This document shows positions 11,354-43,193 of a stretch of 64,000 nucleotides of DNA, piece after piece. Under the pieces are notes generated by a model, which was not told where the DNA came from, searched no databases, and was given only the letters and a program-made list of their open reading frames with translations. The stretch covers positions 5,826 to 69,825 of the forward strand of contig JACAEX010000020.1 in the NCBI GenBank assembly GCA_013388635.1, written 5' to 3'. The first letter of the stretch is position 1. Each line of letters opens with the position of its first letter. The translations under genes and the position numbers were made by a program. Origin of the DNA: Syntrophaceae bacterium. Its GTDB lineage: Bacteria; Desulfobacterota; BSN033; UBA1163.

Positions 11354-11361
11354 GTGTAAAA

Positions 11362-17994: not shown

Positions 17995-18753
17995 ATGCTG
18001 ACTATTGCTTCGATCATTTTTGGGGCTATTGTTGGAAGTTTCTTGAATGTCTGCATCTGGAGGCTTCCTAAGGGAGAGTCCATCGTCAGCCCGGGTTCCC
18101 ATTGTCCCCACTGCAGTCATCCGATCAGATTTTACGACAATATCCCCTTGATCAGTTACCTCCTATTGGGTGGAAGATGTCGTCACTGTAAAGGATCGAT
18201 CTCTGCCCAATACCCTCTGGTCGAAGGGGTGACAGCGCTTAGCTCCCTTCTGCTCTTCTTAAAGCACGGTTTCTCGTTCAGTTATCTCTACTATTTTGCC
18301 TTCCTAACAGGCCTGATCACAGTCACGGTGATCGATCTTTACCATCAGATCATCCCTGACGTGATCAGCATTCCTGGAATCGTCATTGGATTGTTAGGCG
18401 CATTGATCATTCCCCATATCACTTTTCTCCGTTCCCTCTTGGGAGTCCTCCTGGGTGGTGGAAGCCTTTTTCTGGTTGCTACGGCCTATCAGTGGCTCTT
18501 TAAGAGAGAAGGGATGGGTGGTGGAGATGTGAAACTCCTGGCCATGATCGGCGCCTTTTTAGGATGGGATGCAGTGATCCTGACGATCCTCCTAAGCTCT
18601 CTCATCGGGTCGATCACGGGAATCTTGGTTATTATCCTGAAGGGAAAGGATTTCAAATATGCCATCCCCTTTGGCCCGTTTCTTTCACTCGGTGCGGCGA
18701 TCTCACTCTATTCCGGGGAAGACATAGTCAGATGGTATCTTGGTGTAAGATAA
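17995..18753 (+). CDS. pilD: Prepilin peptidase / N-methyltransferase (A24 family) PilD
   Basis: Zn-binding CPHC...CRHC tetracysteine, catalytic-Asp-containing TM core (GGGDVKLLAMIGAFLGW). Confidence 0.85.
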   Translation: MLTIASIIFGAIVGSFLNVCIWRLPKGESIVSPGSHCPHCSHPIRFYDNIPLISYLLLGGRCRHCKGSISAQYPLVEGVTALSSLLLFLKHGFSFSYLYYFAFLTGLITVTVIDLYHQIIPDVISIPGIVIGLLGALIIPHITFLRSLLGVLLGGGSLFLVATAYQWLFKREGMGGGDVKLLAMIGAFLGWDAVILTILLSSLIGSITGILVIILKGKDFKYAIPFGPFLSLGAAISLYSGEDIVRWYLGVR

Positions 18754-18949: not shown

Positions 18950-20680
18950 ATGAAGAACAGTTGGTTATTTAAAAAACTGCATTTAAGCCTCAGGGTGGAA
19001 GTTATTATCAATATTTCTCTGCTCATGCTGGCTGCGATCCTCCTGATCGGCTTTGTGATTTCCAAGATCAACGAGAACAATATGATCGAGGAGAGGACAA
19101 GAAATGGAGAAGGGGTGGTTCAGGACTTTCAAGCGATCATCGACTACATGGTCAGGGATAAGAAGGAGATTTCATTGAACCACCCGTCTGTGAAGAAAGA
19201 GGTCCAGGATTTTGCCCGAATTTATACAAAGGCAAGAAGGTTTCACGATCTCATAATCACGGATCGAGAGATGAGGGTGGTTGCAAGCAAAAAGGGGGAT
19301 GGGGTTGATCAACAATACTTCGATGATCTTCTTAAAAAATCGATTCAGTCAGGGGAGTTGAATACCAAAATCGAAAAAACAGGAGGGCTCTTATCCACCC
19401 ATTATAAGAAATTGATCCTCTCTGCTCCGTTATGGGTTCACGAAAAGATCGAAGGCGGCATTTTAGTTAAGATCTCTTTGACAGATGTAGCCATGCATCT
19501 GCTCACCTGGCAGAAAACGATTCTGATTTCATTGATTTTGGATGCGATTGTCCTGATCGCCTTCGGAAGCTTCCTCCTCTCTCGCATCCTGGTCAAGCCC
19601 ATGAAAGATCTCGTCCGATTGACACAGAAGATCAGTGAGGGCGATTTCAGTCAGACCATAGAGGTTACGTCGAAGAATGAGATCGGACAGCTGATCTCCT
19701 CCTTCAACCGCATGATCGAGAGATTGAGAGAGAAGCAGGAGAGCATCGAAAGTTATTTGAAATCCCTCGAGCTGGCCAACAAGAAGCTGAAGGAAGCCCA
19801 GGAAGAGCTGATCCGCACTGAAAAGCTGGCTTCCATCGGAAGGTTTGCAGCAGGGGTGGCTCACGAAGTCGGAAATCCGCTCGGAGCGATTCTCGGATAC
19901 ACCAGCATCTTAGAAAAGGAAGGCGTCAAACCTGAAGAGGCGAAAGACTACTTAAGACGAATCGAAAAGGAGATCGAGCGGATCAACCGGATTGTTCGAG
20001 AGCTTCTGGATTTCTCAAGACCCTCGAAGTCTGAGATCCAGGAGATCGAAGTCAATAAGGTGATCGAAAATACACTTTCATTACTCTCATACCAGAAAAA
20101 TTTCAAAAATATCAAGACTGATTTAGACCTTCAGACCGATCTACCCCGGATCAAAGGGGATGAATCTCAACTCTCCCAGGTCTTCATCAACATCATTTTG
20201 AATGCTGTGGATGCAATGCCGGAGGGTGGGGCGCTAAGAATCAGGACCGAGGACATCGTCGTCGAAGATCTGCTCGAAGAGGAGCTCCAGCAGTTTTACC
20301 CCAGAAGGCGTAAAGACGATCCACTCGACTCCGACTATTCCCGGCTGAGAAAGCCCGACCCTCTTTCCGCTATCCTTTCAAAATTTTCAAAGGGTGAACG
20401 ACTGGTCAAGATAAGAATTTCTGACACGGGGACAGGGATCCCCCAGGAAAATCTGGAGAGGATTTTTGATCCCTTCTTTACCACCAAAGATCCTGACAAG
20501 GGCACGGGCCTTGGCCTGTCGATCTGCCTGAGGATTGTCGAATCGATGGGCGGAAGAATAAGGGTTGAAAGCGAGGTCGGAAAAGGCTCGACGTTCGAGA
20601 TTTATCTGCCCACATTTGATGCGGGAAGTAGCCTAACAGTTAAGGTGACGACGCCCGTTTCGTCAGGCGTCAACCGGTAA
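18950..20680 (+). CDS. Membrane sensor histidine kinase (2TM, HAMP, HisKA, HATPase), PilS-like
   Basis: HAMP after TM2, H-box [13 protein letters not shown]-boxes DTGTGI/GTGLGLS. Confidence 0.75.
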
Positions 20681-20765: not shown

Positions 20766-22145
20766 ATGATTCCCGGACGAGTTCTCATTATCGACGATGA
20801 AGAAAGCTTCAGGCATATGCTGTCTGTCATCTTACAGAAGGAAAATTATGAAGTCGAAATCGCATCGAATGGAGAGGAAGGGTTAAGAAAGCTGACCTCT
20901 TCCCATTTCGACCAGGTCCTTTGTGATATCCGGATGCCCCAGATGGACGGGATGGAATTTTTGGAGGAGGCGAAGAAGGTTGCAGCCGGAGTGACGATCA
21001 TCATGATGTCCGCTTATGGAACGATCGATACCGCGATCGAGGCGATGAAACTTGGCGCGTACGATTATGTTTCAAAACCCTTTAAGCCCGATGAGATCAT
21101 CCTGACCCTGAAAAAGGCAGAGGAGAGGGAGCGGCTGAGGAAGGAAAATGAGCTTTTGAGAAAGGAGATCCAAAAAGAGTATAGTTTTAACAACATCGTG
21201 AGCAAGAATCAGAAGATGTTAGACATCTTTGAGGTGATCAAAAAGGTCGCTCCCTACAAGTCGACCATCCTGATCACCGGAGAGAGTGGAACCGGAAAAG
21301 AGTTGATTGCGAGGGCATTGCATTATCACAGTGATCGGTCGGGCCGTCCATTCATCCCTGTCAACTGTGGCGCCATTCCCGAGAATTTGCTGGAAAGTGA
21401 GCTCTTCGGTCATGCAAAAGGAGCGTTTACAGATGCGGTCCGGATGAAGAAGGGGCTCTTTGAAGAGGCGGATGGCGGAACCCTCTTTTTAGATGAGATC
21501 GGGGAACTCCCTGCTCCGCTTCAGGTGAAACTCCTCAGGGTGCTTCAGGATGGTGAGATCCGGAGGGTAGGGGAGTCGAAGTCGATCCAGATTGACGTGA
21601 GGATCATTGCTGCCACGGTGAAGGATCTTGCGAGAGAGGTGAGGGAAAACCGCTTCAGAGAGGACCTATTCTATCGTTTGAACGTCCTGCCGATCCATCT
21701 TCCACCCCTTCGGGAGAGGAGAGAGGATATCCCCTTACTCGTCAATCATTTTGTTAATAAATATAGCCAGGCGATGAATAAACCCGTAAGGGGGATTAGT
21801 CCAAAGGCGCTTGAGGTACTGGTCAACTACAAATGGTCGGGCAATGTGAGGGAGCTCGAAAATACGATCGAAAGAGCGATCGTCCTCACAGATAAGGAGA
21901 ATATTGAGCTGGAGAACTTACCCATCGAACTCCAGAACTTCCGGGAGGAGACTCCAGCGGCGCCTTTGGCCGAAGAGGAATATTCGATCAAGAAGGCGTC
22001 AAAGGTTTTAGAGATCGGTTTGATTAAGAAGGCACTGAAAAAGACCAAGGGCAACCATACCCATGCTGCAAGATTACTCGAGATAAGTCATCGGGCGCTC
22101 CTTTACAAGATCAGGGAATACGGGATTGTAGAAAACGAGAGATGA
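20766..22145 (+). CDS. Sigma-54-dependent response regulator (REC-AAA+-Fis HTH), PilR/NtrC-like
   Basis: D-containing REC, Walker A GESGTGKEL, GAFTDA loop, C-terminal HTH ...HAARLLEISHRALLYKIREYGI. Confidence 0.85.
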   Translation: MIPGRVLIIDDEESFRHMLSVILQKENYEVEIASNGEEGLRKLTSSHFDQVLCDIRMPQMDGMEFLEEAKKVAAGVTIIMMSAYGTIDTAIEAMKLGAYDYVSKPFKPDEIILTLKKAEERERLRKENELLRKEIQKEYSFNNIVSKNQKMLDIFEVIKKVAPYKSTILITGESGTGKELIARALHYHSDRSGRPFIPVNCGAIPENLLESELFGHAKGAFTDAVRMKKGLFEEADGGTLFLDEIGELPAPLQVKLLRVLQDGEIRRVGESKSIQIDVRIIAATVKDLAREVRENRFREDLFYRLNVLPIHLPPLRERREDIPLLVNHFVNKYSQAMNKPVRGISPKALEVLVNYKWSGNVRELENTIERAIVLTDKENIELENLPIELQNFREETPAAPLAEEEYSIKKASKVLEIGLIKKALKKTKGNHTHAARLLEISHRALLYKIREYGIVENER

Positions 22146-22386
22146 AAATTGGAATACTGGAAGAAAACGAATGATGGGACGCCGTCTTTGATCCACGCAA
22201 TTTTTTACCTTGTTTATAAAATTTTTTCATATTTTTTGGATGGCGCACCCACAGGGTTTCACCTTATGGCCAATAAGAGTCGGTTCGGTTCAGCGATCCT
22301 ATTCTGGCTTCTAACCTGCCAAAACGATTAGACTTTTAATTACTTCGCCCCTTCCCACTCCCCATAGCTCAGATGCAAAAGGTTAT

Positions 22387-22402
22387 TGGTATGCGATTTG
22401 CA
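22387..22402 (+). promoter_or_regulatory. Sigma-54 promoter (TGGTAT-N5-TTGCA) driving the PilV-PilW-PilX-PilY1 cassette
   Basis: Correct -24 GG / -12 GC spacing, 38 nt upstream of pilin TTG start. Confidence 0.55.
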
Positions 22403-22439
22403 GAACCATCTGCAAAACCCTTATTCATGGAGGTCAGGC

Positions 22440-22805
22440 TTGAAACTCCTGCCTAAAAAAGATGGTTTCACATTGGTCGAGATCTTAATTGCCTTGGTCA
22501 TCTTATCGATTTCTTTATTGGCCCTGGCTGCATTAATGGCAACCACGACACAGAATACCTCTTTTGGCGGCCATCTGACCGAGGCTGCCACTTTTGCCCA
22601 GGATAGGCTCGAAGAGCTGAGGGTAACCCCATGGGCCAGTATTGCGGCAGGATCTGATGTAAGGACAAGCACGGGGACAGGGATGTCTTATAACCGTACC
22701 TGGACAGTGGCCGAGACTGGAAGCTTAAAGACGGTGACAATCACAGTCACCTGGAATGACCCGTTACCGCATTTGTTCAGCCTGACATCATCGTTTGCTC
22801 AATAA
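22440..22805 (+). CDS. pilV: Type IV minor pilin, PilV-like (cassette 1)
   Basis: Prepilin leader MKLLPKKDG / FTLVEILIALVILSISLLALAAL with TTG start 22440 and GGAGG 10 nt upstream; sigma-54 promoter just upstream. Confidence 0.65.
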   Translation: MKLLPKKDGFTLVEILIALVILSISLLALAALMATTTQNTSFGGHLTEAATFAQDRLEELRVTPWASIAAGSDVRTSTGTGMSYNRTWTVAETGSLKTVTITVTWNDPLPHLFSLTSSFAQ

Positions 22806-22816
22806 AAGGAGAGAGG

Positions 22817-23479
22817 ATGAAGAGACCATCGACATTTGGAGAAAAAGGCATCACCCTGATCGAATTGCTTGTGGCACTGATTATCTTCGGATTTGCGATT
22901 GGAGCGATCTACCGCCTTTTCATCGTCCAGACGAGGGCTTATACGGTTCACGAGGAGGTTGTTGACGTTCAACAGAATGTGAGAAGTGCCATGGAAGTGA
23001 TGCTGAGAGACCTTCGAATGACAGGTTATGATGATGATGCCACCACCTCAGTGGTAACGATTCCAACTCCCATTGCTACTCCTGTCCAGGCAAGCGATAT
23101 TACGGTGAGCTACGAATATCAGAATCAGAGGTACACGGTTCGTTACTGGAGAGATGCCCCAACCTTAGAACTACGCCGGCAACTCACAAGGGATGCTACA
23201 GTTGATCCAGCAGAAACCCTTCTGAATAATGTTGATACCCTAACCTTTACTTACGGCCTCGACGCCAATGGAGATGGAAACATGGACGACCAGAACGGGG
23301 ATGGCGTCATTGACAATAACGACTGGGTGACCGCAGCCGGGGTGGGGACATCAAAGGTGATTGCGGTACGGGTCACCCTGGCTGCCAGACCTGCAACGGA
23401 CAACCCAGATGTTCAAACAAGGGTCTCTCCAAGAAGTTTAACCTCTGCTGTGACTTTAAGAAATCTTGTCATGAAATGA
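22817..23479 (+). CDS. pilW: Type IV minor pilin, PilW-like (cassette 1)
   Basis: Class III leader ...GEKG / ITLIELLVALIIFGFAIGAIYRLF. Confidence 0.6.
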   Translation: MKRPSTFGEKGITLIELLVALIIFGFAIGAIYRLFIVQTRAYTVHEEVVDVQQNVRSAMEVMLRDLRMTGYDDDATTSVVTIPTPIATPVQASDITVSYEYQNQRYTVRYWRDAPTLELRRQLTRDATVDPAETLLNNVDTLTFTYGLDANGDGNMDDQNGDGVIDNNDWVTAAGVGTSKVIAVRVTLAARPATDNPDVQTRVSPRSLTSAVTLRNLVMK

Positions 23480-23495
23480 GTAAGGAGAATTCTTT

Positions 23496-23978
23496 ATGAT
23501 TAAGGGAAGAAACTCAGCTCTCAGAAATCAATCCGGCGCAGCCCTGGTGATCGCCATGACGATGATGATTGTCCTGACGCTTATTGCGATTGGCTCGATC
23601 TTCACATCGACATTTGAGATCAGGATCTCAGGGAACAAGAGATGCTCAACCGACTCCTTCTATGCAGCAGACAGCGGGGTTCAGGTAGTCCTGGCGAGGA
23701 CTCAAAATTTCGATATGAATCTATATACTGCGACCGGTCAGTACGATCCTTCTACCGACGCAAACAATCCCATTCCTGCCAATACCACGGTCCTGATTAC
23801 GAACGACACCACCCAAGAGGGTGCACCCAGGGGCTATGGGTTCAGTGCGATGAGTTTTGAATTCGAACACTTTCTGGTCACATCTACCGGAGAGAGCTGT
23901 CCGAACCCCAATCCTGCCAGAACCATAGTCCAGGAAAAAGTGGTGAGACTGATTCCCACCATGCAAGGAGGTTATTAA
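23496..23978 (+). CDS. pilX: PilX-like minor pilin (PilX N-terminal domain)
   Basis: GAALVIAMTMMIVLTLIAIGSIFTS pattern of PilX_N. Confidence 0.65.
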   Translation: MIKGRNSALRNQSGAALVIAMTMMIVLTLIAIGSIFTSTFEIRISGNKRCSTDSFYAADSGVQVVLARTQNFDMNLYTATGQYDPSTDANNPIPANTTVLITNDTTQEGAPRGYGFSAMSFEFEHFLVTSTGESCPNPNPARTIVQEKVVRLIPTMQGGY

Positions 23979-23981
23979 GAG

Positions 23982-26900
23982 ATGAAAGTCTTAAGATATT
24001 TGAGCGTTATAGTGGGTTTGATACTTTTCATCTGTGGGAATTTATCCGCCTATGACACAGATCTCTACATGGCAAGCGGAGCAGGGGTTGAACCCAATAT
24101 CCTGATCATCTTTGACAACTCAGGAAGTATGGGTGAACAGATCCCCGTAGTTTATTATAACTACGAGACCGAGTATCCTCCGGCTGTAGTGCCTCTTGCT
24201 GATAAAGGCAAGGTCTACTATCAAAGCTGGTGGGGAAATTGGTCGGTCTTTAAGAATTCGATCGAAGAGGTTCCATGCCCGGATGCACAGACCGCGCTGA
24301 CCTACAATGGCCATTACGAAGGTTATACAAACTCGACTTGTAATAAGAATAGTTACAATCTACGAACGGGAAATTACAGGAACTTTCTTGCCACCGAAGG
24401 AAGCGAAACCGATACCAAATTAAACATTGCAAAGAATGTGATAAAGGATTTCTTGGATACGATCAATGGCGTAAAGGTCGGGGTGATGATCTTTAACGGG
24501 AGCGAAGGAGGACGTCTCCAGGACGAGACAAAGACCCAGATTCGAAGCCTGACTTCTACTGTGCGAAGCGAATTGAAGACCGCTATCGAAAATATTCAAG
24601 CGGACACCTACACCCCTCTCGCTGAGACGCTTTATGAGGCAGGGATCTACTTCAGGGGTGGAAGAAGCTACTTCAACTCCGGTGTCAACTATATCAGCCC
24701 GATCGAGTTTCATTGCCAGAGAAATTATGTGATCCTTATGACAGATGGGGAACCGACAAAGGACCGTAATTCAGTCCTAAAAAACGGAGCCACAGTGGAT
24801 GGCGTTACCTATCCGGCGATTGGAGATCAGGATGGTGACAAGAGAGAGCCCGGCCTGGCCAATGAGGTTTACTACGAATACGATGGCTCCGACTATTTGG
24901 ACGATGTTGCCAAGTACTTATACAATACTGATCTTCGTTCTGACCTAACAGGTCAGCAGAATATCATTACCTATACGATCGGCTTTGCGGTCAGCTCCCC
25001 CCTGCTTGAGAGGACAGCGACCCATGGCCACGGAAAGTACTATTATGCGGCGAGTGCTTCGCAGTTGGCAAATGCCTTTCAGAATGTTATAGGCGAGATA
25101 CTTGCGAAGTCTACTTCCTTTGTGGCGCCAATCGTTCCGGTCAGCCGTCTGGAGAGGACGACTGCAGGAGACAAGATATACTTAGCCTTTTTTAAGCCGA
25201 AAGCAAATCAGATGTGGAGTGGAAATATAAAGAAGTATGGTGTTGCTCAGGCTGATAACCCTTCTTTAAATATTTCCAAAGGCGATATCCTCGACGTGAG
25301 TGGCCAAAAGGCTATCGATGATACAGAAGGTTCTCCCACGAAGGGTCAATTCTACGCTACGGCAACATCGTTCTGGACAACCACCAGTCCTATGGACGGA
25401 GGTGAGGTTGAACAGGGAGGAGTGGGGGAGGTTCTGATGAATCGGACCGCCCAAAGAAATCTTTATACATATTTCTATACGAATGTGAATTTGAGTGATG
25501 ATTCGAATAAGTTCATAACGACTAATGCATCGATCACACCATCGAAATTGGGTCTCCTGGAGGACGACACTGATGGAAGGAATAAGCTGATTAACTTTGT
25601 CCATGGCTACGATGCCTATGATGATAATGGCAATGGGAATACCTCAGAGAAGCGGGACTGGATCCTGGGCTCTTTCCTCCATTCAAGACCTATGATTATC
25701 CATTACCCGAACCCGAGCAACCCGAGTTTGACCCGCTCCGTAATCTTTGCGGGTTCAAATGGTGGCATGCTCCATGCCTTTGACGACTCAGATGGAAGGG
25801 AGCTCTGGGGTTTCATCCCTCCGATCCTGTTAGACAAACTTAAGGCATTACATGCTGATGTTATGGCAACATATGTGGATGGCTCACCAAGGGCTTATAT
25901 CACCTACAATACTGATGGTTCTGTTAATCAGGCGATTCTGATATTCGGTCTGAGAAGAGGCGGCAACCGATACTATGCCCTCGACGTGACCTATCCTGAG
26001 AGTCCTAAATTTCTCTGGGAGATCGGGCCCACGGAAACATGGTATCAGACTACAAAGACGATAACATCGGCTTATAATAGGATGGGGCAGACATGGGCAT
26101 CTCCGATCATCGGCAAGATCCCGTGTGAAGAGGGGAGCACCAATTGTGTGAATGTTTCCGCTTCGACCGGTGTCGGAGAGCGATGGGTGGCCTTTATTGG
26201 GGGCGGATATGATACAAACCAGGATACTGATCCGGTCGTAGCCTCTGATACGGTGGGCATGGCGGTCTATGTGGTTGATGTGTTGACAGGTTCTCTGGTG
26301 AAGCGGTTCTCGATTGATGATTCAGGATATTCAGATATGACCTATGCGATTCCCAGCGATATTGCAAAGGTCGACACCGATGGAAATGGAAAGGTCGATC
26401 GTCTATATGTGGGGGATATGGGCGGAAGGATCTGGCGGTTCGATATTTGCGATCCGGATTACCCGGATCATTCGAGTCCAAGTTGGTGCGCTGCGAACCC
26501 AGATGCCTGGACAGGGAAGATCATATTTGAATCGAACCCGGATCCGCGCGGGCCCAACGACCGGAGAAAGATGTTCTATCCTCCTGATGTTACGTTCGAA
26601 AGGGATTCTACCGGACCATATGAGATGCTCTTCTTCGGCACTGGAGACCGTGAGGCTCCAAAGGAGGACGATGTCGCCAACCGTCTCTATGCTATTAAAG
26701 ACAGACACCCTGCATCACCCCTGAAAGAGAGTGATTTGGTTAATGTGACTGACGGTTTGACCCCAGGAACGCCGGTTCCAAACGGATGGTTTATCATTCT
26801 CGAAAATTCGGGAGAAAAATGTCTCGCTGCACCTGTTGTCTTCTATAAAGTAGCCTATTATACAACCTTCACTCCTTCGGGCGAGGCAGTGGAGGGAGAC

Positions 26901-27170
26901 CCCTGCTATGTTGGTGAGGGAAAAGGGAGGCTCTATGCGCTGAAGTACAGTACTGGTGATGCTGTTTTTAACTTTGATGGTTCGCTTGATAATGTCATCT
27001 CAAAGAGTGACAGGTCTATCGAGATGGGTTCGGGCATCCCATCCGGGGTGATCGTAACCTTTGTCGGTGGCACGGCGGTTGCGTATGCAGGTGTGGGCGG
27101 AGGTGTCTGTTCTCCTGAGCTGGCAAGTTCAAAATCCCTGGTTCCAATGACCTGGCGAATCATTTTTTAA
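23982..27170 (+). CDS. pilY1: PilY1-like tip adhesin: signal peptide, vWA domain, C-terminal PilY1 beta-propeller with Ca-binding loop (paralog 1, 1062 aa)
   Basis: MIDAS IIFDNSGSMG; C-terminal DTDGNGKVDRLYVGDMGGRIWRFD. Confidence 0.8.
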   Translation: MKVLRYLSVIVGLILFICGNLSAYDTDLYMASGAGVEPNILIIFDNSGSMGEQIPVVYYNYETEYPPAVVPLADKGKVYYQSWWGNWSVFKNSIEEVPCPDAQTALTYNGHYEGYTNSTCNKNSYNLRTGNYRNFLATEGSETDTKLNIAKNVIKDFLDTINGVKVGVMIFNGSEGGRLQDETKTQIRSLTSTVRSELKTAIENIQADTYTPLAETLYEAGIYFRGGRSYFNSGVNYISPIEFHCQRNYVILMTDGEPTKDRNSVLKNGATVDGVTYPAIGDQDGDKREPGLANEVYYEYDGSDYLDDVAKYLYNTDLRSDLTGQQNIITYTIGFAVSSPLLERTATHGHGKYYYAASASQLANAFQNVIGEILAKSTSFVAPIVPVSRLERTTAGDKIYLAFFKPKANQMWSGNIKKYGVAQADNPSLNISKGDILDVSGQKAIDDTEGSPTKGQFYATATSFWTTTSPMDGGEVEQGGVGEVLMNRTAQRNLYTYFYTNVNLSDDSNKFITTNASITPSKLGLLEDDTDGRNKLINFVHGYDAYDDNGNGNTSEKRDWILGSFLHSRPMIIHYPNPSNPSLTRSVIFAGSNGGMLHAFDDSDGRELWGFIPPILLDKLKALHADVMATYVDGSPRAYITYNTDGSVNQAILIFGLRRGGNRYYALDVTYPESPKFLWEIGPTETWYQTTKTITSAYNRMGQTWASPIIGKIPCEEGSTNCVNVSASTGVGERWVAFIGGGYDTNQDTDPVVASDTVGMAVYVVDVLTGSLVKRFSIDDSGYSDMTYAIPSDIAKVDTDGNGKVDRLYVGDMGGRIWRFDICDPDYPDHSSPSWCAANPDAWTGKIIFESNPDPRGPNDRRKMFYPPDVTFERDSTGPYEMLFFGTGDREAPKEDDVANRLYAIKDRHPASPLKESDLVNVTDGLTPGTPVPNGWFIILENSGEKCLAAPVVFYKVAYYTTFTPSGEAVEGDPCYVGEGKGRLYALKYSTGDAVFNFDGSLDNVISKSDRSIEMGSGIPSGVIVTFVGGTAVAYAGVGGGVCSPELASSKSLVPMTWRIIF

Positions 27171-27230
27171 GTCGTAATGTCAAAAAAGTTATGAAAAACT
27201 CTGTTAAAAGACAAAGAAAAACAAGCATGT

Positions 27231-27359
27231 CCCTCCCCCTTGAGGGGGGAGGAGAGGGTGGGGGTGAAAGAATGAGGGAGCATGACAAAGCAATTAATAA
27301 AAGTCAGCTGATATCGCAGGTTACCCCTCACCCTAGCCCTCTCCCACAAGGGGAGAGGG
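27231..27359 (+). terminator. Two GC-rich stem-loops (27231-27251; 27337-27359) between pilY1-1 and the downstream small gene; candidate terminator/attenuator or GC-rich palindromic repeat
   Basis: cctccccc/ttgag/gggggagg and ccctctccc/acaag/gggagaggg perfect stems; second followed by aataaatttt. Confidence 0.4.
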
Positions 27360-27404
27360 GGAATAAATTTTGACAATACGTTTTAAGTAAGAAGGAGGGA
27401 AGTC

Positions 27405-27773
27405 ATGAGAAAATTTCTCTTTTTGAATATGGTGTTTCCCACGGTTCTTTTGCTGACGGTCTTCTGTCCTTTGGTTTTGGCTGAAGAGGTGAGTGTAGTC
27501 AGGCTCCAGGGTGCTATAATGGAACTCGATTTGAAGAAAAACATCCTCATAGTCAATGAGAGGGTTTTTGTATGCGATCAGAAGACGACATTTCACAACG
27601 AGAAAGGTGTCCCTGTCGGCATTGAAAAACTGAGAGTCAAATCCTGGGTATATATTGAAGGTGAACGCGATGAAGCTCGGAAGAGATTGGTGGCAAAGAA
27701 GATCTATTTGCTCCCCAGGTATATCGGTCGAAAGGAGAGGCGTCTCTATCCATTCATCCCACGAGAAGATTAG
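27405..27773 (+). CDS. Small secreted protein (signal peptide), paralog of 31191-31508; PilY1-associated
   Basis: N-terminal signal MRKFLFLNMVFPTVLLLTVFCPLVLA; alignable to the ORF upstream of pilY1 paralog 2. Confidence 0.4.
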   Translation: MRKFLFLNMVFPTVLLLTVFCPLVLAEEVSVVRLQGAIMELDLKKNILIVNERVFVCDQKTTFHNEKGVPVGIEKLRVKSWVYIEGERDEARKRLVAKKIYLLPRYIGRKERRLYPFIPRED

Positions 27774-27804
27774 ATGGTGCGGTATAAGCCGGGCTCTCAA
27801 AGGG

Positions 27805-28722
27805 GTGATCTTCTGCACTATTCTTGCATCCTCTTTTTTAACTCTCTCCTGTGAGAATCAGAGGGAGGTACCTCAAGTCAAAGAGAAGACCCGAAGCAAT
27901 GTCCCTCCGGTCATCACGTCTGTCGACATTATGCCAAAAAACCCCAGCCGAGAGAGTAACTTGGATCTCATCGTACGAAGTGAGGATCCTGATGGCGACA
28001 TGGTGACCTATCGTTACCAGTGGATTAGAAATGGTGAAGAGATTTCTGGTGAGAATAAGAATCTTTTAAAGAGCGGAAATTTCAATAAAGGAGATGTCAT
28101 CCAGGTGAGGGTGGTCCCTTCAGATGATAAGGCAGAGGGAAGGGCCTTTCTATCCCCTCCGGTAAAGATTCTCAATTCTCCACCGGTTGTCCAGGAGGTC
28201 CGGATTGAGCCGAGGATTGCCTACGCACAGGATCGTCTAAGGGCCGTTGTGAAAGGTCATGATGTGGATGAAGACCCCATTCACTACACCTATCAATGGG
28301 AAAAGAATGGAGTGGTTCTGGCTGAAGAGAGGACAGAGGCGCTTGAGAAGGGCCGATTTAAGAGGGGAGACTCCATTGTCGTCACAGTGACACCCGAGGA
28401 TGGAGAAGGTAGAGGTAATCCGAAAAAGTCAGAAGCCATCACCATATTGAACAGTCCACCGGTCATCCTTTCATCCCCTCCGACCTCGGTCGAGGGGAAC
28501 GAGTATCTCTACCAGGTGAAGGCAGAGGACCCGGATGGAGATCCCACCTCTTTCAGTCTGAGGTCTGGTCCGAAAGGGATGGAGATCGACAAGGAGAAGG
28601 GGCTGGTTCGATGGACGATTCAGTGGAGAGACCGGGGCACTCATCCAGTAGAGATTGAGGTCTCTGATAAGGACGGGGCGAAGTGCTTCCAGCGATATGT
28701 CCTGAATGTTGAAATCCGATGA
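27805..28722 (+). CDS. Lipoprotein with tandem about 90-aa Ig/cadherin-like repeats; start uncertain (frame open from 27655)
   Basis: Lipobox FLTLSC; two clear internal repeats (SPPV...YxYQWxxNG...GDxIxVxVxPxD) plus a divergent third domain. Confidence 0.45.
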   Translation: MIFCTILASSFLTLSCENQREVPQVKEKTRSNVPPVITSVDIMPKNPSRESNLDLIVRSEDPDGDMVTYRYQWIRNGEEISGENKNLLKSGNFNKGDVIQVRVVPSDDKAEGRAFLSPPVKILNSPPVVQEVRIEPRIAYAQDRLRAVVKGHDVDEDPIHYTYQWEKNGVVLAEERTEALEKGRFKRGDSIVVTVTPEDGEGRGNPKKSEAITILNSPPVILSSPPTSVEGNEYLYQVKAEDPDGDPTSFSLRSGPKGMEIDKEKGLVRWTIQWRDRGTHPVEIEVSDKDGAKCFQRYVLNVEIR

Positions 28723-28775
28723 ATAAGGTTTAGTGTCTGTCATCTTAAGTCCGGTGTCGGAATTGAATTTCCATA

Positions 28776-28803
28776 TTGACAAAGATTTTTTAGCCGATAA
28801 AAT
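28776..28803 (+). promoter_or_regulatory. Sigma-70-like promoter TTGACA-N16-TAAAAT upstream of minor pilin cassette 2
   Basis: Consensus -35 and near-consensus -10, about 60 nt upstream of GTG 28867. Confidence 0.45.
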
Positions 28804-28866
28804 AGATTTAACCTCTTTAAGGTCGGTGCGGCCAGTATCCGTTTTTAGCGGACGGAGGTGAGATTC

Positions 28867-29313
28867 GTGAACAAAAAGGGAGTAACATTAATCGAGATGA
28901 TTGTGGTCATGGTGATCATTGGTCTGGGTGCGCTCCTGTTCGTTCCGAATATTTCCGGGTTCTTGCCCAGTTACCGCCTGAGAGGTGCGGCCCGGGACAT
29001 TGTCTCCACCATGAAAAATGCCCAGGTCAGAGCGGTTTCGACAGGTATGACTTACCGGGTCAGGTTTACACAAACCCCTCCAAGCTTCGTCCTTGAATAT
29101 TTTGACACGGGAAGTGGAAACTGGGTGGCTGAGGGGACAAGCCAGAGTCTTCCAACAGGGATTTCAATCGTTTCGATCAATTTTACAGGGGATAATGCAC
29201 AGTTTAACTCCAATATGACTGCTTCTGCTGGAAGTATTAGGTTGCAGAATAATCGTGGGACGCAGAAAGTAGTGAGTGTTGCTTCCTCGACCGGCAGGAT
29301 TCAGCTCCAGTAG
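28867..29313 (+). CDS. fimT: Type IV minor pilin, FimT/GspH-like (cassette 2)
   Basis: Leader MNKKG / VTLIEMIVVMVIIGLGALL from GTG 28867 with GGAGG 8 nt upstream. Confidence 0.6.
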   Translation: MNKKGVTLIEMIVVMVIIGLGALLFVPNISGFLPSYRLRGAARDIVSTMKNAQVRAVSTGMTYRVRFTQTPPSFVLEYFDTGSGNWVAEGTSQSLPTGISIVSINFTGDNAQFNSNMTASAGSIRLQNNRGTQKVVSVASSTGRIQLQ

Positions 29314-29682
29314 ATGATTCAGAGAAAGACAGGCTTTTCTTTGGTTGAGGTCCTGATTGGACTGATCTTCCTTGCCATCGGTCTTCTTGCCCTCGCTGGT
29401 TTGCAGATCACCTCCATCCGCGGTAATTCCTTCAGCCATCATTTGATGCAGGCCACCTACCAGGTTCAGGATCGCGTCGAAAGATTAAAAAATCTACCGC
29501 TTACCTCTCCTGAACTCCAGCCTGGAAGTCACAACCTCGAGCCCTTCACCCTTTCGGGTCTTGTCTTCAAACAGTCCTATACCGTCATTGAAGAAGCTGA
29601 TCTTAAGACGATCCATTACACGGTCGAATGGGACGACGGTGTTGGCCACAGGATCACCTTTTCGACGATCCGGTCGCAGTGA
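29314..29682 (+). CDS. pilV: Type IV minor pilin, PilV-like (cassette 2)
   Basis: MIQRKTG / FSLVEVLIGLIFLAIGLLALAGLQ. Confidence 0.65.
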   Translation: MIQRKTGFSLVEVLIGLIFLAIGLLALAGLQITSIRGNSFSHHLMQATYQVQDRVERLKNLPLTSPELQPGSHNLEPFTLSGLVFKQSYTVIEEADLKTIHYTVEWDDGVGHRITFSTIRSQ

Positions 29683-29687
29683 AAAGT

Positions 29688-30506
29688 ATGCAGATTATTA
29701 AGAAGAAAAACAGAGGGGTCACCCTGATTGAACTGATGATTGCCCTGGTGATGAGCAGCGTCCTCATCGCCGCTCTCTATGAAGTATTCATTCGTCACCA
29801 AAAGACCTATGTCCTTCAGGAACAGATCGTCGACACACAGCAGAGTGTGCGGATCGCCTTGAATCGCATGGTCAGTGAGATCAGAATGGCAGGGTTTGGG
29901 GGAGTGGAAAACGTCCTGAGTTTGGCCGGAGGGGTAAATGGCTTCACCCAGGTGATCACCCCGGGCCCGAAGAGAATCACAATCGTCGGAGGATTCAAGC
30001 AGATCCGGCGAGATAATGGAGAGCCGATTCTGGTCTCTTCGGTTTCAGGAAATCAGATTACGCTCAATTATGCCACAAACGAGTTTGATAGATTGGCACA
30101 CCGATTTATTTCGATCGGTGGCCTTGAAAGCAGTACAGTGCTGAAAAGGGATAGAAGGATTCTTACACTCAGCAACCCTCTCAAGTGGAATCACCCTGCT
30201 GGGACACCAGTATTTAAGATCCAGGCCATCACCTACACCACGGGCCTCAGCGGTCTTAGGATCATCCTTCAAAGGGATGAGAATACGGGAGGTGGCCCTC
30301 AGCCTGTGGCCGAGAATATAGAAGAGATTCAATTCGAATATTTCGATGCCAATGGAAACACGACCGCAGATCCTCCGAAGATTCGGATGGTTCGGGTGAC
30401 AGCTACTGCAAGAACCGATCGGCCTGATCCTTATCTCAAGATCGGGGATGGCTATCGGAGAAGGCAGATCGCGTCTCATATCTACATCAGAAATATGGGA
30501 TTATAG
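29688..30506 (+). CDS. pilW: Type IV minor pilin, PilW-like (cassette 2)
   Basis: MQIIKKKNRG / VTLIELMIALVMSSVLIAALYEVF; ATG 29688. Confidence 0.65.
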   Translation: MQIIKKKNRGVTLIELMIALVMSSVLIAALYEVFIRHQKTYVLQEQIVDTQQSVRIALNRMVSEIRMAGFGGVENVLSLAGGVNGFTQVITPGPKRITIVGGFKQIRRDNGEPILVSSVSGNQITLNYATNEFDRLAHRFISIGGLESSTVLKRDRRILTLSNPLKWNHPAGTPVFKIQAITYTTGLSGLRIILQRDENTGGGPQPVAENIEEIQFEYFDANGNTTADPPKIRMVRVTATARTDRPDPYLKIGDGYRRRQIASHIYIRNMGL

Positions 30507-30712
30507 GTCATGGTTACGAGACCCGTTTCATAACTTCTGATGTGGAGCATCGGAGATGAGGTGATGAGGAGAGGAATCTATTTCTCCCTATCCCCTCACC
30601 CCCTTATCTCCTTATTGATTATTGATTTTTTGCCGATACGGGCATCGTTACCCTGACCGGACGACGAGACCCTTATTTTCTGAGCAATTGAAAGATGGCA
30701 GGTTTCTGTTAT

Positions 30713-31159
30713 ATGGAAAGAAATATTTTAAAGAACAGAAAGGGGGTAGCGTTGATCATTGCCCTTCTGTTGCTACTTGCCCTGACGTTGATCGGAATCA
30801 GCTCGATCAATACGACGACGATTGAAACGGGTATCTCTGGAAACGATCGGGAGAAGGTCGATGCCTTTTATACGGCTGAGGCCGGGGTCCAGGTGGGAAT
30901 TCATCAAATTCCGGTTACATCCCCGATCCCAACGACCAAACTGAAGGAAAATTCCTACTATTGGAGCGGAACGGCAGATGACAGAGAAAACCCCAAGGCC
31001 TTTAAGTCCTTCGGAATTCACCAGATGCCCGGATTTGATTCCTCGTGGGCGTTTCGACGATATCAGATTAATGTGACAGGAGAATCCTTTAGATCGACAA
31101 GAGAGATAGAGGTTCAGGTGAGTTACGGCCCCTTTCGGGCGGATACGGATTACAACTGA
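30713..31159 (+). CDS. pilX: PilX-like minor pilin (cassette 2)
   Basis: MERNILKNRKGVALIIALLLLLALTLIGISSINTT PilX_N pattern; ATG 30713. Confidence 0.6.
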   Translation: MERNILKNRKGVALIIALLLLLALTLIGISSINTTTIETGISGNDREKVDAFYTAEAGVQVGIHQIPVTSPIPTTKLKENSYYWSGTADDRENPKAFKSFGIHQMPGFDSSWAFRRYQINVTGESFRSTREIEVQVSYGPFRADTDYN

Positions 31160-31190
31160 TTGGGCTTCTGGGTTTTAGAGGGAAGGGGAG

Positions 31191-31508
31191 ATGAGATATA
31201 GAGGAGGTTTATACATTGTTGTCTTTGCCATAGCTTTTCTTTTTCAAAACCAAACTTTTTCCCAGGTGAAGGTCGGGGAGACGGTTTCATTTACTGGGAT
31301 GATCGAGAGGGTCCAGGACGATCTCAAATTCATCGTCATCCATGAGATGAGGATTTTTATCACTACGGATACAAGGATAGTAGATGAGAACGGAGAGATG
31401 TTGAAGGTAGATGATCTGAGGCCGAAACTGAAAGTAGCCATTGAAGGGATTCGGAATCCAAATGGCTTCCTCGCAAAGAGGATTCTTCTTAAAAGCCCGA
31501 AGAAGTAA
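31191..31508 (+). CDS. Small secreted protein, paralog of 27405-27773; immediately upstream of pilY1 paralog 2
   Basis: Signal peptide; shared architecture (G.I.E.D.K.I.V.E...F......LAKKI.LL). Confidence 0.45.
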   Translation: MRYRGGLYIVVFAIAFLFQNQTFSQVKVGETVSFTGMIERVQDDLKFIVIHEMRIFITTDTRIVDENGEMLKVDDLRPKLKVAIEGIRNPNGFLAKRILLKSPKK

Positions 31509-34298
31509 GTGAAGATCAAGAAGCTTAACCCGGCGATACTCCTTATTTTTTTTCTCTCGATACCCCTCCATCATCTTCAGGCCGATGATACCGATCTCTT
31601 TATGACCAATGTGGAACCGGATGCGCTGATCCTTCTGGACAAATCCGGAAGCATGAATTTAGGCCCTGCAGGCTATCCTGTCAGTGACCCTAACAGAAAG
31701 ATCGATATTGCAAGAAAAGTCATTTTTGATCTTCTCGATCATAACGGGGATGGTCGGATCGACAATGCGGATGAAAAGAGTTTAAACGTGCGTCTGGGAT
31801 ATATGAGGTTCTGGAACTCAAACAGTAACGATGATGGTGAACCAAAAACAGGGGAGATCCAGATCTTATCAGCTTTGGGAAACTCGTACAGCAATATCTG
31901 GTCCAGCGTAAACCAGGAGCAGGAGCGTGATGGTCTGGGTGGTACGCCTTTAGCTGCCTCTCTATCAGAGGCCAGAACATACTTTACGCGGGACGTCAAT
32001 CCTTCGGATCCGGCCATCGATTGCAGGCAGAAGTTTCTGATCCTGATTACGGATGGGGAAGACACCTATGCCTGTGGCGGTGATGGGTCAGAGGGACAAG
32101 CGGATATGTTCAAAAGAAGAATCTTGACCATCCAAAGGGCCAAGGAGCTTTATGAGGCCGGAATCAAAGTCTTCGTTGTGGGATTGGGCCAAACCCTGTC
32201 AGAGCCTCTGAAAAGGACTTTAAACTGGACTGCAAGGTATGGAGGGACAGATAACCCTCTGGAGATGAACTCGGGAGACCCAGGTGCCTATGATGTGGCA
32301 AGATACAGCCCTGCCTGTTCAACCACGGATGCGAGTTCAGATCCAGCCAATTATCCCCTTTCTGGGTACGCCTTCTTAGCGTCGGATGCTTCCTATCTGA
32401 AAAAAGCAATAGAGGCTATTGCGAAGGAGGTTCGAGAAGGATCTTATTCTTTCACCGCTCCTTCGAGACCTACCGCTCAAATAGCTGACAGGGATGTCCT
32501 CTACCTCTCTTCCTTTACCCCCAACCGCACCCCCTTCTGGAAGGGAAATATCCGGGCATATCGCCTGGATGAAGATGGATTGTTTCCTGTGGATAAGGAT
32601 GGAAATCCTCTCAGATCGAGCCTGATCTGGGATGCATCTGAGAACCTCAAAGCGCTCTCGCCCGGTTCTCGAAAAATTTATACATATGTGAGTGGAAACC
32701 AGATACCTTTTGATTATGGACATTTAACCAATACCGATCTCGGTGTTTTCACAAATTGGGAAAGGCAAAGGCTGATTGACCATATCCGGGGCATCGATGC
32801 CTACGATGTGGACGGTGATGGGGATAGAAATGAAGCGAGAGAGTGGAGTCTCGGCGATATCTTTCATTCAAACCCCGTGATTGTGGGTGAACCCTCTCCC
32901 TTTTTTGAGGATCAGGGTTTTAGCGGGAAAGGGGGTTTTTATCAGTTGAGAAAGGATCGGACCAAGGTGGTCATTGCCGGCGCTAACGATGGGATGCTCC
33001 ATGCATTTGATGCAGCCACAGGAGATGAACAATGGGCTTTTATTCCAACCAGTCTGTTGAAGAATTTGAAACTGATGGCGTCTTCCCATACCTATTATGT
33101 CGATTCGACACCCAAAGTAGCTGATGTCTGGTTCTATAGCAGTCCTACAGATATGACGAAGAGTCCAGATGAATGGAGAACGGTTCTGATCTCAGGCCTG
33201 AGGAAGGGGGGAAAGGCCTACTTCGCTCTGGATATCACAGACACCTTAGACCCTAAGTATCTCTGGGAATTTCCGGCACCTTCGGACACAACGACTCTCG
33301 CAAAGGTCGGCCAGAGCTGGTCCGAGCCTGCCATCGGAAGGGTAAAGGTCGAGGTGGGAGACGGACTTTATGAGAGATGGGCAGCCTTCATCGGCGGAGG
33401 GTTTGACTACACGAACAGTACAGGAAGAGCTTTCTTTGTGATCGATATCAAATCGGGTGAGACTATTAAGGAGTTCTCTGGGCTGGAAGGCATGAATTAC
33501 GCATTTGCAGCTCCTCCAAAAGCGGTTGATACCAATTCGGACGGATATGTAGACAGGGTCTACGTGGGCGATCTGGGTGGCCAGATGTGGGTGTTCGATC
33601 TCTCATTTGATGAGGCGAAAAGAGAGAGCAACAGTCAGTGGACAGGAAAGAGACTTTTCGTAGCCCCGATTTCAGAGACTGAGGTCCATCGGATCTACTG
33701 TGAGCCTGCTGTTGCATTTGATCGATCTGGAACTCCCTGGGTCTATTTCGGGACTGGGGATAGAGAACGGCCCAACGATCTCTCAAATCCTAACGAGAGG
33801 TTCTATGCGGTGAAAGACAGTGGCATAGGAAGCTACCCGCGAAAGGAGACCGATCTCTCAGAGGTTACGTCTTCAAATACCTTCAAACCGGCGTCGAAAG
33901 AGGGCTGGTATCTCCGCTTGGAGCGATCAGCTCAAAATTCAGAGAAGGTGCTAACAAAACCGGTCGTCTTCAATAAACTTCTCTACTTTACTACGTATTT
34001 ATATACTGCAACCGAAAATCCCTGCCTTTTTTTAGGGGAGGGAAAACTCTACGTGCTTGAATCCCTCTCTGGAGGGGGAGCCCTAAGCTTTGATGATGCG
34101 ACTGTCTTAGAAGACACTCCATCCGAGCGGTCAAAAAAGATCGGCAGGGGAATCCCTTCTGCCCCTGCGGTCAGAGTGGATTTAAAAGGTAAGGCATGGG
34201 TGACCGTCGGAACGACCGAGGGTCAGGTTTTCTCAACCCCAATATTCTCTCCAGCCAGATCGAAGCAGATCCTTTATTGGCGAGAAGTCATTCCGTAA
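31509..34298 (+). CDS. pilY1: PilY1-like tip adhesin (paralog 2, 929 aa): signal peptide, vWA, PilY1 propeller
   Basis: GTG start; MIDAS ILLDKSGSMN; DTNSDGYVDRVYVGDLGGQMWVFDL Ca-loop. Confidence 0.8.
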   Translation: MKIKKLNPAILLIFFLSIPLHHLQADDTDLFMTNVEPDALILLDKSGSMNLGPAGYPVSDPNRKIDIARKVIFDLLDHNGDGRIDNADEKSLNVRLGYMRFWNSNSNDDGEPKTGEIQILSALGNSYSNIWSSVNQEQERDGLGGTPLAASLSEARTYFTRDVNPSDPAIDCRQKFLILITDGEDTYACGGDGSEGQADMFKRRILTIQRAKELYEAGIKVFVVGLGQTLSEPLKRTLNWTARYGGTDNPLEMNSGDPGAYDVARYSPACSTTDASSDPANYPLSGYAFLASDASYLKKAIEAIAKEVREGSYSFTAPSRPTAQIADRDVLYLSSFTPNRTPFWKGNIRAYRLDEDGLFPVDKDGNPLRSSLIWDASENLKALSPGSRKIYTYVSGNQIPFDYGHLTNTDLGVFTNWERQRLIDHIRGIDAYDVDGDGDRNEAREWSLGDIFHSNPVIVGEPSPFFEDQGFSGKGGFYQLRKDRTKVVIAGANDGMLHAFDAATGDEQWAFIPTSLLKNLKLMASSHTYYVDSTPKVADVWFYSSPTDMTKSPDEWRTVLISGLRKGGKAYFALDITDTLDPKYLWEFPAPSDTTTLAKVGQSWSEPAIGRVKVEVGDGLYERWAAFIGGGFDYTNSTGRAFFVIDIKSGETIKEFSGLEGMNYAFAAPPKAVDTNSDGYVDRVYVGDLGGQMWVFDLSFDEAKRESNSQWTGKRLFVAPISETEVHRIYCEPAVAFDRSGTPWVYFGTGDRERPNDLSNPNERFYAVKDSGIGSYPRKETDLSEVTSSNTFKPASKEGWYLRLERSAQNSEKVLTKPVVFNKLLYFTTYLYTATENPCLFLGEGKLYVLESLSGGGALSFDDATVLEDTPSERSKKIGRGIPSAPAVRVDLKGKAWVTVGTTEGQVFSTPIFSPARSKQILYWREVIP

Positions 34299-35846: not shown

Positions 35847-35861
35847 TGGCACTTATTTTGC
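35847..35861 (+). promoter_or_regulatory. Sigma-54 promoter TGGCAC-N5-TTGC upstream of REC-DUF4388/mglB/mglA operon
   Basis: Perfect consensus TGGCACttattTTGCt, 62 nt upstream of ATG 35924. Confidence 0.65.
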
Positions 35862-35923
35862 TTTTCCTTAGAGAAATCAAGTAGTAACAGGCAATCACAA
35901 CCCGACATCCTCGAGATCTCCCT

Positions 35924-36613: not shown

Positions 36614-36654
36614 GCGGTTTGCATCTCGGCTCTGCGGTCAGGAAATCATAGAAG

Positions 36655-37074: not shown

Positions 37075-37104
37075 TCGACTTCGATTTCCTGGCGTGGAAA
37101 GTGT

Positions 37105-37731: not shown

Positions 37732-37749
37732 TGACCAAGGACATCGAGC

Positions 37750-43171: not shown

Positions 43172-43193
43172 ATCTCACTCAGGAGGAGACCCA

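Follow-up and report, generated by a model that had tools for sequence, protein, structure and literature searches.

Why should a single type IV pilus locus encode its minor pilins and PilY1 twice, and place the two sets under promoters of different types? The question is raised by a stretch of 64 kb (hereafter the window, to which all positions refer) from an uncultured Syntrophaceae-like deltaproteobacterium of sediment; the same DNA is present in the Logan assemblies SRR10095340, SRR10095342, and SRR10095362. The window contains a large type IVa pilus (T4aP) supercluster which reads, on the plus strand unless stated otherwise, the prepilin peptidase PilD, the sensor kinase HK1, the sigma-54-dependent regulator EBP1, cassette 1, a DUF5666 protein (DUF5666a), an immunoglobulin (Ig)-domain lipoprotein, and cassette 2. 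An earlier note, made from the sequence alone, had placed two minor pilin/PilY1 cassettes at 22387-34298, and all the genes that it named were found there on the plus strand. Cassette 1 consists of PilV1-PilW1-PilX1-PilY1_1 (1062 aa), to which DUF5666a is to be added as the last gene, and cassette 2 of a FimT/GspH-like pilin (FimT2)-PilV2-PilW2-PilX2-small protein-PilY1_2 (929 aa). Our answer is that the cassettes probably provide two alternative priming/tip modules for one T4aP machine, switched according to conditions. Related loci were collected by a genome scan with PilY1_2, which yielded 16, and by a scan of metagenomes with the Ig lipoprotein as anchor, which yielded 80 more; all of them (given L numbers below) were mapped by tblastn.

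Two paralogous sets of minor pilins and PilY1

A six-frame scan of the 64 kb found the canonical prepilin motif, G/[FVI][TS]L[IV]E, exactly five times, and all five lie in the cassettes, in PilV1, PilW1, FimT2, PilV2, and PilW2. PilX1 and PilX2 have the leader, the helix, and the PilX_N domain and lack Glu5, which is likewise absent from the PilX proteins of Pseudomonas, Neisseria, and Myxococcus. Prepilin leaders, whose absence would have counted against the reading of the earlier note, are present in all the pilins of cassette 2. Minor pilin classes were assigned by best NCBIfam matches that fall below their cut-offs (PilV and GspI for PilV1; GspH and XpsH for FimT2). On that basis, the T4aP core minor pilin set (GspH/I/J/K-like, i.e., FimU, PilV, PilW, and PilX) is represented by all four members in cassette 2 and is incomplete in cassette 1, for which a GspH/FimU/FimT-like pilin was found neither in the window nor at the 13 related EBP1-PilV1 junctions. 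The V-W-X-PilY1 composition read earlier for cassette 1 stands, but this is not a full set, and its own DUF5666a had been omitted. PilV1 starts with a TTG after GGAGG, 54 nt inside the mechanical ORF beginning at 22386, and FimT2 likely starts with the GTG at 28867, as judged by the ribosome-binding site. Automatic gene calls on L097, a Logan contig of the same organism, miss pilV1, with its TTG start, altogether and truncate the Ig lipoprotein and fimT2, the latter thereby losing its prepilin leader.

The two PilY1 proteins score 66.1 (PilY1_1) and 95.6 bits (PilY1_2) against the PF05567 propeller, the cut-off being 28.1. The metal-ion-dependent adhesion site (MIDAS) DxSxS is at aa 45 and 44, respectively, and TPLA and TDGE motifs are readable downstream of it; with Pfam VWA the pair scores 20.8 and 17.4 bits, short of the 23.8 cut-off. 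The propeller loop Dx[DN]x[DN]xxxD, a predicted calcium site, reads DTDGNGKVD at aa 798 of PilY1_1 and DTNSDGYVD at aa 674 of PilY1_2, so that the MIDAS and the calcium loop are found in both proteins, as the earlier note had it. In addition, PilW1 holds two tandem EF-hand-like DxDxDG loops (23260-23317) and the vWA region of PilY1_2 an extra one (31736-31766, aa 77-85), which suggests additional calcium sites in the tip complex.

When the cassettes were compared pairwise, as the earlier note had proposed, PilY1_1 and PilY1_2 proved to be 33% identical over 744 aligned columns, and the clades to which they belong ~33-38% identical. A neighbor-joining tree of the C-terminal 553 aligned columns, in which a small sample of sequences from Acidobacteriota, Geobacteraceae, Geotalea, Nitrospirota, and Oxalobacteraceae served as outgroups, supported the PilY1_1 and PilY1_2 clades at 100 each and joined them as sisters at 94. 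PilV, PilW, and PilX each retrieve their counterpart in the other cassette (PilW2 and PilW1, for example, are 26% identical, E 3e-18). At the DNA level, similarity between the cassettes is confined to the short segment coding for the prepilin leader; there is no DNA repeat beyond it, and a recent duplication or gene conversion between the cassettes was thus ruled out. The comparisons point to old paralogues, which would have arisen by an old en-bloc duplication without recent conversion.

Cassette 1 was present in 67 contigs and absent from 11. Overall, the related loci hold one to three cassettes, with a third FimT-V-W-X(-Y1) cassette in about ten. Extra-cassette or variant loci are L044, L050, L065, L085, L088, L092, L037, and L064; cassette 1 is in tandem in L092, and PilY1 is missing beside the minor pilins of L037 and L064. 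As compared across its relatives, the locus is a hot spot for tip-module turnover.

Table 1. Features of the pilus supercluster in the window, in base-pair order. The slash in a leader marks the same place as in the prepilin motif.
Feature	Position	Strand	Evidence and remarks
PilD prepilin peptidase	17995..18753	+	Pfam A24_N_bact 2.5e-36, Peptidase_A24 2.8e-23; opens the PilD-HK1-EBP1 block
HK1 sensor histidine kinase	18950..20680	+	transmembrane segment (TM) 1, periplasmic domain of ~145 aa, TM2, HAMP (209-261), HisKA, HATPase_c
EBP1 sigma-54-dependent response regulator	20766..22145	+	REC, AAA+, Fis-type HTH; Pfam Sigma54_activat 1.4e-73, Response_reg, HTH_8
Candidate EBP1 upstream activating sequence (UAS), A/T box ATAAAATTTTTTCAT	22216..22230		~170 nt upstream of the sigma-54 site; TTTTCAT nearly invariant in 20 aligned promoter regions
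Conserved block TAACCTGCCAAAACGATTAGAC	22312..22333		between UAS and promoter, where a DNA-bending (IHF-like) site is expected; putative IHF assignment
Sigma-54 promoter of cassette 1	22387..22402	+	TGGTATGCGATTTGCA, -24 TGGTAT / -12 TTGCA
PilV1, GspI-like minor pilin	22440..22805	+	leader MKLLPKKDG/FTLVE; N_methyl 1.9e-8
PilW1, GspJ-like minor pilin	22817..23479	+	Pfam PilW 4.1e-8, N_methyl
PilX1, GspK-like minor pilin	23496..23978	+	PilX_N 2.2e-11; without Glu5
PilY1_1, 1062 aa	23982..27170	+	signal peptide, putative vWA with MIDAS, beta-propeller with Ca loop; T4P_PilY1 3.6e-18
GC-rich long imperfect palindrome, like a repetitive extragenic palindrome (REP) or miniature inverted-repeat transposable element (MITE)	27229..27362		fold -86.7 kcal/mol, z -6.7; lies in the spacer of 234 nt that follows pilY1_1
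DUF5666a, small secreted PilY2-like OB-fold protein	27405..27773	+	last gene of cassette 1
Ig-domain lipoprotein	27805..28722 (start codon uncertain)	+	three tandem Ig/PKD/cadherin-like domains; lipobox LTLSC; He_PIG 8.4e-9, Big_9
Sigma-70-type promoter	28776..28803	+	TTGACA-16-TAAAAT, 11/12 positions; best match in 16 kb scanned
FimT2, GspH/FimU/FimT-like minor pilin	28858..29313	+	N_methyl 1e-6; leader MNKKG/VTLIE
PilV2, GspI-like minor pilin	29314..29682	+	prepilin motif; N_methyl 18.0 bits, below the 21.2-bit cut-off
PilW2, GspJ-like minor pilin	29688..30506 (likely start 29688)	+	leader MQIIKKKNRG/VTLIE; N_methyl 2.2e-8
PilX2, GspK-like minor pilin	30713..31159	+	PilX_N 1e-16; without Glu5
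DUF5666b, small secreted OB-fold protein, 105 aa	31191..31508	+	DUF5666 28.2 bits (cut-off 27); stop abuts the pilY1_2 start
PilY1_2, 929 aa	31509..34298	+	signal peptide, putative vWA with MIDAS, beta-propeller with Ca loop; T4P_PilY1 4.2e-27
PilM-PilN-PilO-PilP-PilQ	41580..47243	+	Pfam PilM_2 1.2e-80, PilN, PilO, PilP, Secretin; context only

The sigma-54 promoter of cassette 1 and the HK1/EBP1 pair

The sigma-54 promoter that the earlier note had predicted before cassette 1 is TGGTATGCGATTTGCA, 38 nt 5' of the PilV1 start. It has the canonical -24 GG/-12 GC spacing (TGGCAC-N5-TTGCW), and in the 64 kb TGGYAYRNNNNTTGCW is matched exactly at this and just one other position. The pattern TTGGTAYRnnTTTTGCW is kept at each of the 13 EBP1-PilV1 junctions, in two more regions upstream of PilV1, and in seven orphan copies; wherever a related locus spans the junction, the sigma-54 promoter is immediately preceded by the EBP1 gene. 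The orphans are found in seven loci without cassette 1, where the whole sigma-54 promoter region is retained after EBP1; cassette 1 was therefore lost secondarily in those loci, and the promoter is tied to cassette 1.

In an alignment of 20 distinct sequences, the promoter, the TTTTCAT box some ~140-170 nt upstream of it, and the TAACCTATTAAAA block are kept, and the remaining spacer has diverged. The TTTTCAT box would be the site to which EBP1 binds. No clean match to the IHF consensus was seen by eye in the TAACCT...ATTA block. A palindrome built from the TTTTCAT half-site, CTATGAAAAAAnTTCATAG, is present in L005, L006, L007, L012, and L015, and in L005-L007 it is followed by a sigma-54 site. 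The Geobacteraceae/Geotalea loci have an EBP1 orthologue, then a ATGAAAAA..TCAT palindrome, then minor pilin or PilY1-like genes; a GGCACG-N4-TTGC site was read by eye in Geotalea L015, and pattern scans of L012 gave no sigma-54 site.

The earlier note regarded the genes upstream of this promoter as a PilS/PilR-like pair, which holds for only one of the partners. EBP1 does have the domain architecture of a PilR-type regulator (REC, sigma-54 AAA+, Fis-HTH), but all NCBIfam equivalogs fall below their cut-offs, and it is therefore best described as a generic NtrC-family regulator. PilS is a polytopic (six-TM) membrane sensor that monitors PilA, and the PilS/PilR pair controls the major pilin gene. 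HK1 is not a kinase of that type: two TM segments surround a periplasmic domain, a HAMP domain follows, and there is no pilA in the window. The promoter adjoining HK1/EBP1 serves minor pilins and PilY1. Orthologues of HK1 are 61-79% identical, and its periplasmic part has no Pfam match. The PilD-HK1-EBP1 block as a whole is kept in L005, L006, L015, L021, L037, L065, L072, L076, and L077.

The sigma-70 promoter of cassette 2

The sigma-70-type promoter attributed earlier to cassette 2 was also found, and TTGACAAA...AATAAAAT precedes the FimT gene in 53 of the 66 informative loci by a strict pattern, and in 59 when the -10 is relaxed. It is nearly invariant, although its distance to the FimT gene ranges from 47 to 238 nt. 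Their conservation as phylogenetic footprints supports a function for both promoters. In many loci (L008, L029, L053, L056, and L084 among them), the stretch ~40-50 nt upstream of the sigma-70 -35 contains a conserved box, TGTCAATTnnTGTAAA, perhaps a regulator site; no such box is apparent in the window.

The first 16 loci had suggested a strict "promoter swap" rule, by which cassette 2 is read by sigma-54 if alone and by sigma-70 only beside cassette 1. The 80 metagenomic loci led us to reject this rule, as seven of those without cassette 1 also carry the sigma-70 promoter; a purely sigma-54 cassette 2 occurs only in the L005-L007 sublineage.

Between the cassettes

Genes within the cassettes are spaced by 0-31 nt, with the exception of one 206-nt gap, versus 135-234 nt for the spacers between units. 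The long palindrome after pilY1_1 (Table 1) may attenuate transcription or stabilize RNA; it is not a canonical terminator because it has no T tract. Similar GC-rich hairpins were seen in intergenic spacers of related loci, e.g., after EBP1 in L005 and in L064/L080. The exceptional 206-nt gap, between pilW2 and pilX2 (30507-30712), is itself structured (fold z -3.3) and contains an insert with CCCCTCACCC, related to the post-pilY1_1 palindrome. No convincing intrinsic terminator was found between the units, the 28715-28860 spacer folding like shuffled sequence (z -0.17), and Rfam and tRNA scans of the window revealed no riboswitch (e.g., c-di-GMP) and no other known RNA.

The earlier listing skipped two genes between the cassettes, those of the DUF5666 protein and of the conserved Ig-domain lipoprotein. 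The "small protein" that it gave for cassette 2 is present but not unique: DUF5666a is its paralogue in cassette 1, and both are PilY2-like OB-fold proteins whose genes adjoin pilY1, directly after pilY1_1 and directly before pilY1_2. The DUF5666a family is found directly 3' of PilY1_1 in 33 related loci, and DUF5666b orthologues occupy the equivalent position in at least 10; in public annotation, DUF5666b is the hypothetical protein HXY46_03540 of a Syntrophaceae bacterium metagenome-assembled genome (100% identical). The two families were aligned by hhalign (98.8%, E 8e-17), and 9 of 11 DUF5666-type proteins match DUF5666. An AlphaFold (AF2) model of DUF5666a is an OB-like barrel (pLDDT 84.6), for which the best fold match in the PDB is P. 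aeruginosa PilY2, 3tdq (E 8e-4, target-normalized TM 0.68-0.73), with CusF close behind. However, only one of the 11 proteins matches the PilY2 Pfam family PF14481, and weakly (E 0.062), and a profile search of PDB sequences with the DUF5666 family linked it to no solved structure and did not find 3tdq. The relation between DUF5666 proteins and PilY2 is positional and fold-level only. The Ig lipoprotein, whose PKD and cadherin domains were found by a PDB profile search, is encoded ahead of the FimT gene in every locus spanning the region.

A model and its alternatives

Both cassettes would serve one machine, of which PilD and PilMNOPQ are encoded in the window itself. Of the two, module 2 (FimT2-PilV2-PilW2-PilX2-DUF5666b-PilY1_2), which has a complete GspH/I/J/K-like set and PilY1, would be read by sigma-70 from a conserved promoter and hence probably acts as the default set. 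For module 1 (PilV1-PilW1-PilX1-PilY1_1-DUF5666a), with its sigma-54 promoter, the neighboring activator EBP1 would be required; as EBP1 would in turn be controlled by the periplasm-sensing kinase HK1, this module would be made only on signal. In the known priming complex, a GspH/FimU-like pilin joins the tip trimer to the major pilin. Since cassette 1 is without such a pilin, it is reasonable to suppose that FimT2 serves module 1 too, as the adaptor to a shared major pilin. The prepilin leaders would be cleaved by PilD, and the V-W-X trimer and PilY1 would seed filament assembly and end at the tip, where the vWA/MIDAS domain would bind a substrate and the propeller calcium loop would tune function.

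A more far-reaching version, which we put forward only tentatively, is that of a modular pilus-tip switch with exchangeable modules. The locus would then be a conserved array of one to three V-W-X-PilY1-OB-protein modules that share FimT2, supplied from the sigma-70 module, as their adaptor; an HK1/EBP1-type pair would swap in an alternative tip on an outside or envelope signal, and the DUF5666/PilY2-like proteins and the Ig lipoprotein would be unrecognized PilY1 accessory factors comparable to TfcP of Myxococcus xanthus.

Several points weigh against condition-dependent modules of one machine. As the earlier note stated, no pilA-like prepilin gene and no pilB/T/C are present within the window. 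It contains no rpoN either, and one machine with one major pilin is an assumption. The L1 loop of EBP1 is GAFTDA, not the canonical GAFTGA, and this form is common to 14 of 14 EBP1 orthologues checked. In the 16 kb scanned, matches to the sigma-70 consensus are at chance level, and the significance of the promoter at 28776-28803 therefore comes from its conservation; many of the metagenomic contigs, however, are close relatives, so that there are at most as many lineages as loci counted. L008, L053, L056, L076, L084, and L093 add a distal sigma-54 site before cassette 2, and the single cassette of L005-L007 is preceded by the palindrome and by a promoter of the sigma-54 type alone; in related loci, the promoter split is thus typical, not universal, and the window shows the typical layout of its clade. 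Lastly, there is no canonical terminator between the cassettes, and transcripts begun at the sigma-54 promoter may run on into cassette 2; the conserved sigma-70 promoter, on the other hand, speaks for a separate start of cassette 2 at least.

Read-through taken to its limit would make pilV1-pilY1_2 one transcription unit, or units always co-expressed, which would yield mixed or parallel tips without any switching. The genes are indeed all co-directional, a canonical terminator between the units was not found, and in some related loci sigma-54 sites precede both cassettes. We nonetheless consider this improbable: if it were unused, a -35/-10 pair would not have stayed near-invariant ahead of the FimT gene in 53-59 loci, a strongly structured element lies 3' of pilY1_1, and where cassette 1 has been lost the sigma-54 promoter is left as an orphan, with cassette 2 retaining its own promoter. 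It is quite unlikely that cassette 1 instead serves another filament system encoded elsewhere (a second type IV pilus, one like a type II secretion system, or a competence pseudopilus), even if it is without a GspH-like pilin and only 26-38% identical to cassette 2, because its PilY1 has the T4aP-type propeller and calcium loop, within the T4aP supercluster it is always flanked by PilD-HK1-EBP1 and the second cassette, and M. xanthus feeds one machine with all three of its clusters (PMC7541494). The variable content of the locus (11 contigs without cassette 1, some without PilY1, and some with three cassettes) might also be taken to mean that one cassette is redundant and being lost, the promoter difference being a by-product without specialization. 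This is hardly credible given that every gene of both cassettes in the window is intact, and that cassette 1 orthologues, 43-67% identical, keep their frames, motifs, and promoter in dozens of loci.

Neighboring genes

Cassette 2 is followed by a TPR protein (minus strand), a PATAN-response regulator/MglB/MglA-like module, a PAS-kinase/sigma-54 regulator pair (the second such pair, located before pilM), and PilMNOPQ. The module, at 35924-38892, sits between the cassettes and pilM and comprises the PATAN-response regulator, a Roadblock/MglB-like protein, a Ras-like MglA-like GTPase, and a protein of 380 aa whose C-terminus is weakly CheW-like; it is 79-95% identical across related loci and probably acts as a switch of polarity or motility. 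Among the genes of the window are three or four for sigma-54 activators, and the sigma-54 contact loop is GAFTDA in EBP2 (40011-41441) as well, and GAFTNA in a third regulator (60268-61635). Further sigma-54-type sites, at 87-102, 35847-35862, and 61888-61903, are intergenic and upstream of plus-strand genes; the PATAN-response regulator/MglB/MglA-like operon has one of them in front of it, and an HD-domain response regulator another. The protein encoded at 58692-60239 has an unusual architecture, in which a sigma-54-interaction AAA+ domain is fused to a HisKA phospho-acceptor without a receiver domain. Positions 4000-12000 have a GC content of 38-40% (46-50% elsewhere), with co-directional genes upstream of an asparagine-synthase-like gene, and may be a surface-polysaccharide island.

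Comparison with known systems

In anoxic sediments, the type IV pili of Syntrophaceae- and Geobacter-like bacteria, which are mostly uncultured, are of importance to attachment, to aggregation, and possibly to contacts between species. What the locus offers is a layout that runs from a kinase to a sigma-54 activator, a conserved UAS and promoter, and an alternative tip set. PilC1 and PilC2 of Neisseria are PilY1-family paralogues that act as alternative tip-associated adhesins; they are single genes switched by phase variation, whereas whole cassettes with separate promoter types are found here. N. gonorrhoeae has two PilY1 proteins (PMC7541494). The RpoN2-PilRX system of Xanthomonas oryzae (PMC7170775) is alike in that sigma-54 and a PilR-type activator drive type IV pilus units through GG-N10-GC promoters, but pilA, pilC, and pilR are central to it and alternative PilY1 cassettes are not described (PMC7170775).

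The Geobacter pilus cluster with pilY1 (the GSU2038/Gmet_0967 region; PMC2700814), together with L012 and L015, shares with the window the order of an EBP1-like activator, minor pilins/PilY1, and pilM. Geotalea L015 also has pilD and an HK1-like kinase upstream, and L012 and L015 alike have the ATGAAAAA..TCAT palindrome after the EBP1 orthologue. No second homologous cassette, Ig lipoprotein, or DUF5666 gene was detected in those loci of the Geobacter type that were fetched. Geobacter species differ in the PilY1 gene at the equivalent site, one replacing another (PMC2700814).

In Pseudomonas aeruginosa, the fimU-pilV-pilW-pilX-pilY1-pilY2-pilE operon is under FimS(AlgZ)/AlgR (PMC5979040, PMC4064291). 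Cassette 1 repeats its pilV-W-X-Y1-Y2 order; PilY1 with a calcium loop and a vWA domain (the latter putative here), and two-component control of the operon (predicted here), are further likenesses. However, that operon is the only set in P. aeruginosa, it is regulated by a LytTR-type protein that does not depend on sigma-54, and a homologue of its PilE is absent here. PilY2 of P. aeruginosa is poorly characterized, and the DUF5666 proteins resemble it in fold and not in sequence family, the single weak match given above apart.

The closest known system is that of M. xanthus, in which cluster_1, _2, and _3 are under the HsfBA phosphorelay (PMC7541494, PMC9109919, PMC13190605). Its three minor pilin/PilY1 clusters work with one machine (PMC7541494); the NtrC-like HsfA binds to the regions that hold the pilY1.1 and pilY1.3 promoters, and without HsfA the expression of these two genes shifts in opposite directions (PMC7541494, PMC9109919). 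Loss of FimU3 has the mildest effect among the cluster_3 deletions, and TfcP is described as an accessory periplasmic protein that supports PilY1.1 (PMC8833165). Both systems have several paralogous minor pilin/PilY1 sets, with a shared machine and major pilin that are established there and assumed here. In both, the C-terminal propeller of PilY1 is conserved and the N-termini are divergent, PilY1.3 also having a vWA domain; an NtrC-like, sigma-54-type regulator is present (its differential control being shown there and predicted here), and PilX is without Glu5. On the other hand, the M. xanthus clusters are dispersed and their regulator is pleiotropic, whereas the sets described here are in tandem beside a dedicated kinase/activator pair; cassette 1 has three pilins, not four, and a putative vWA domain is in both PilY1 proteins; and regulation was established by experiment there and is read from sequence here. 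The general picture gained from Myxococcus and Pseudomonas is unchanged. To it, the locus adds the suggestion of frequent gain, loss, and rewiring of tip modules, and a likely context for two unannotated families, the DUF5666/PilY2-like proteins and the Ig lipoprotein.

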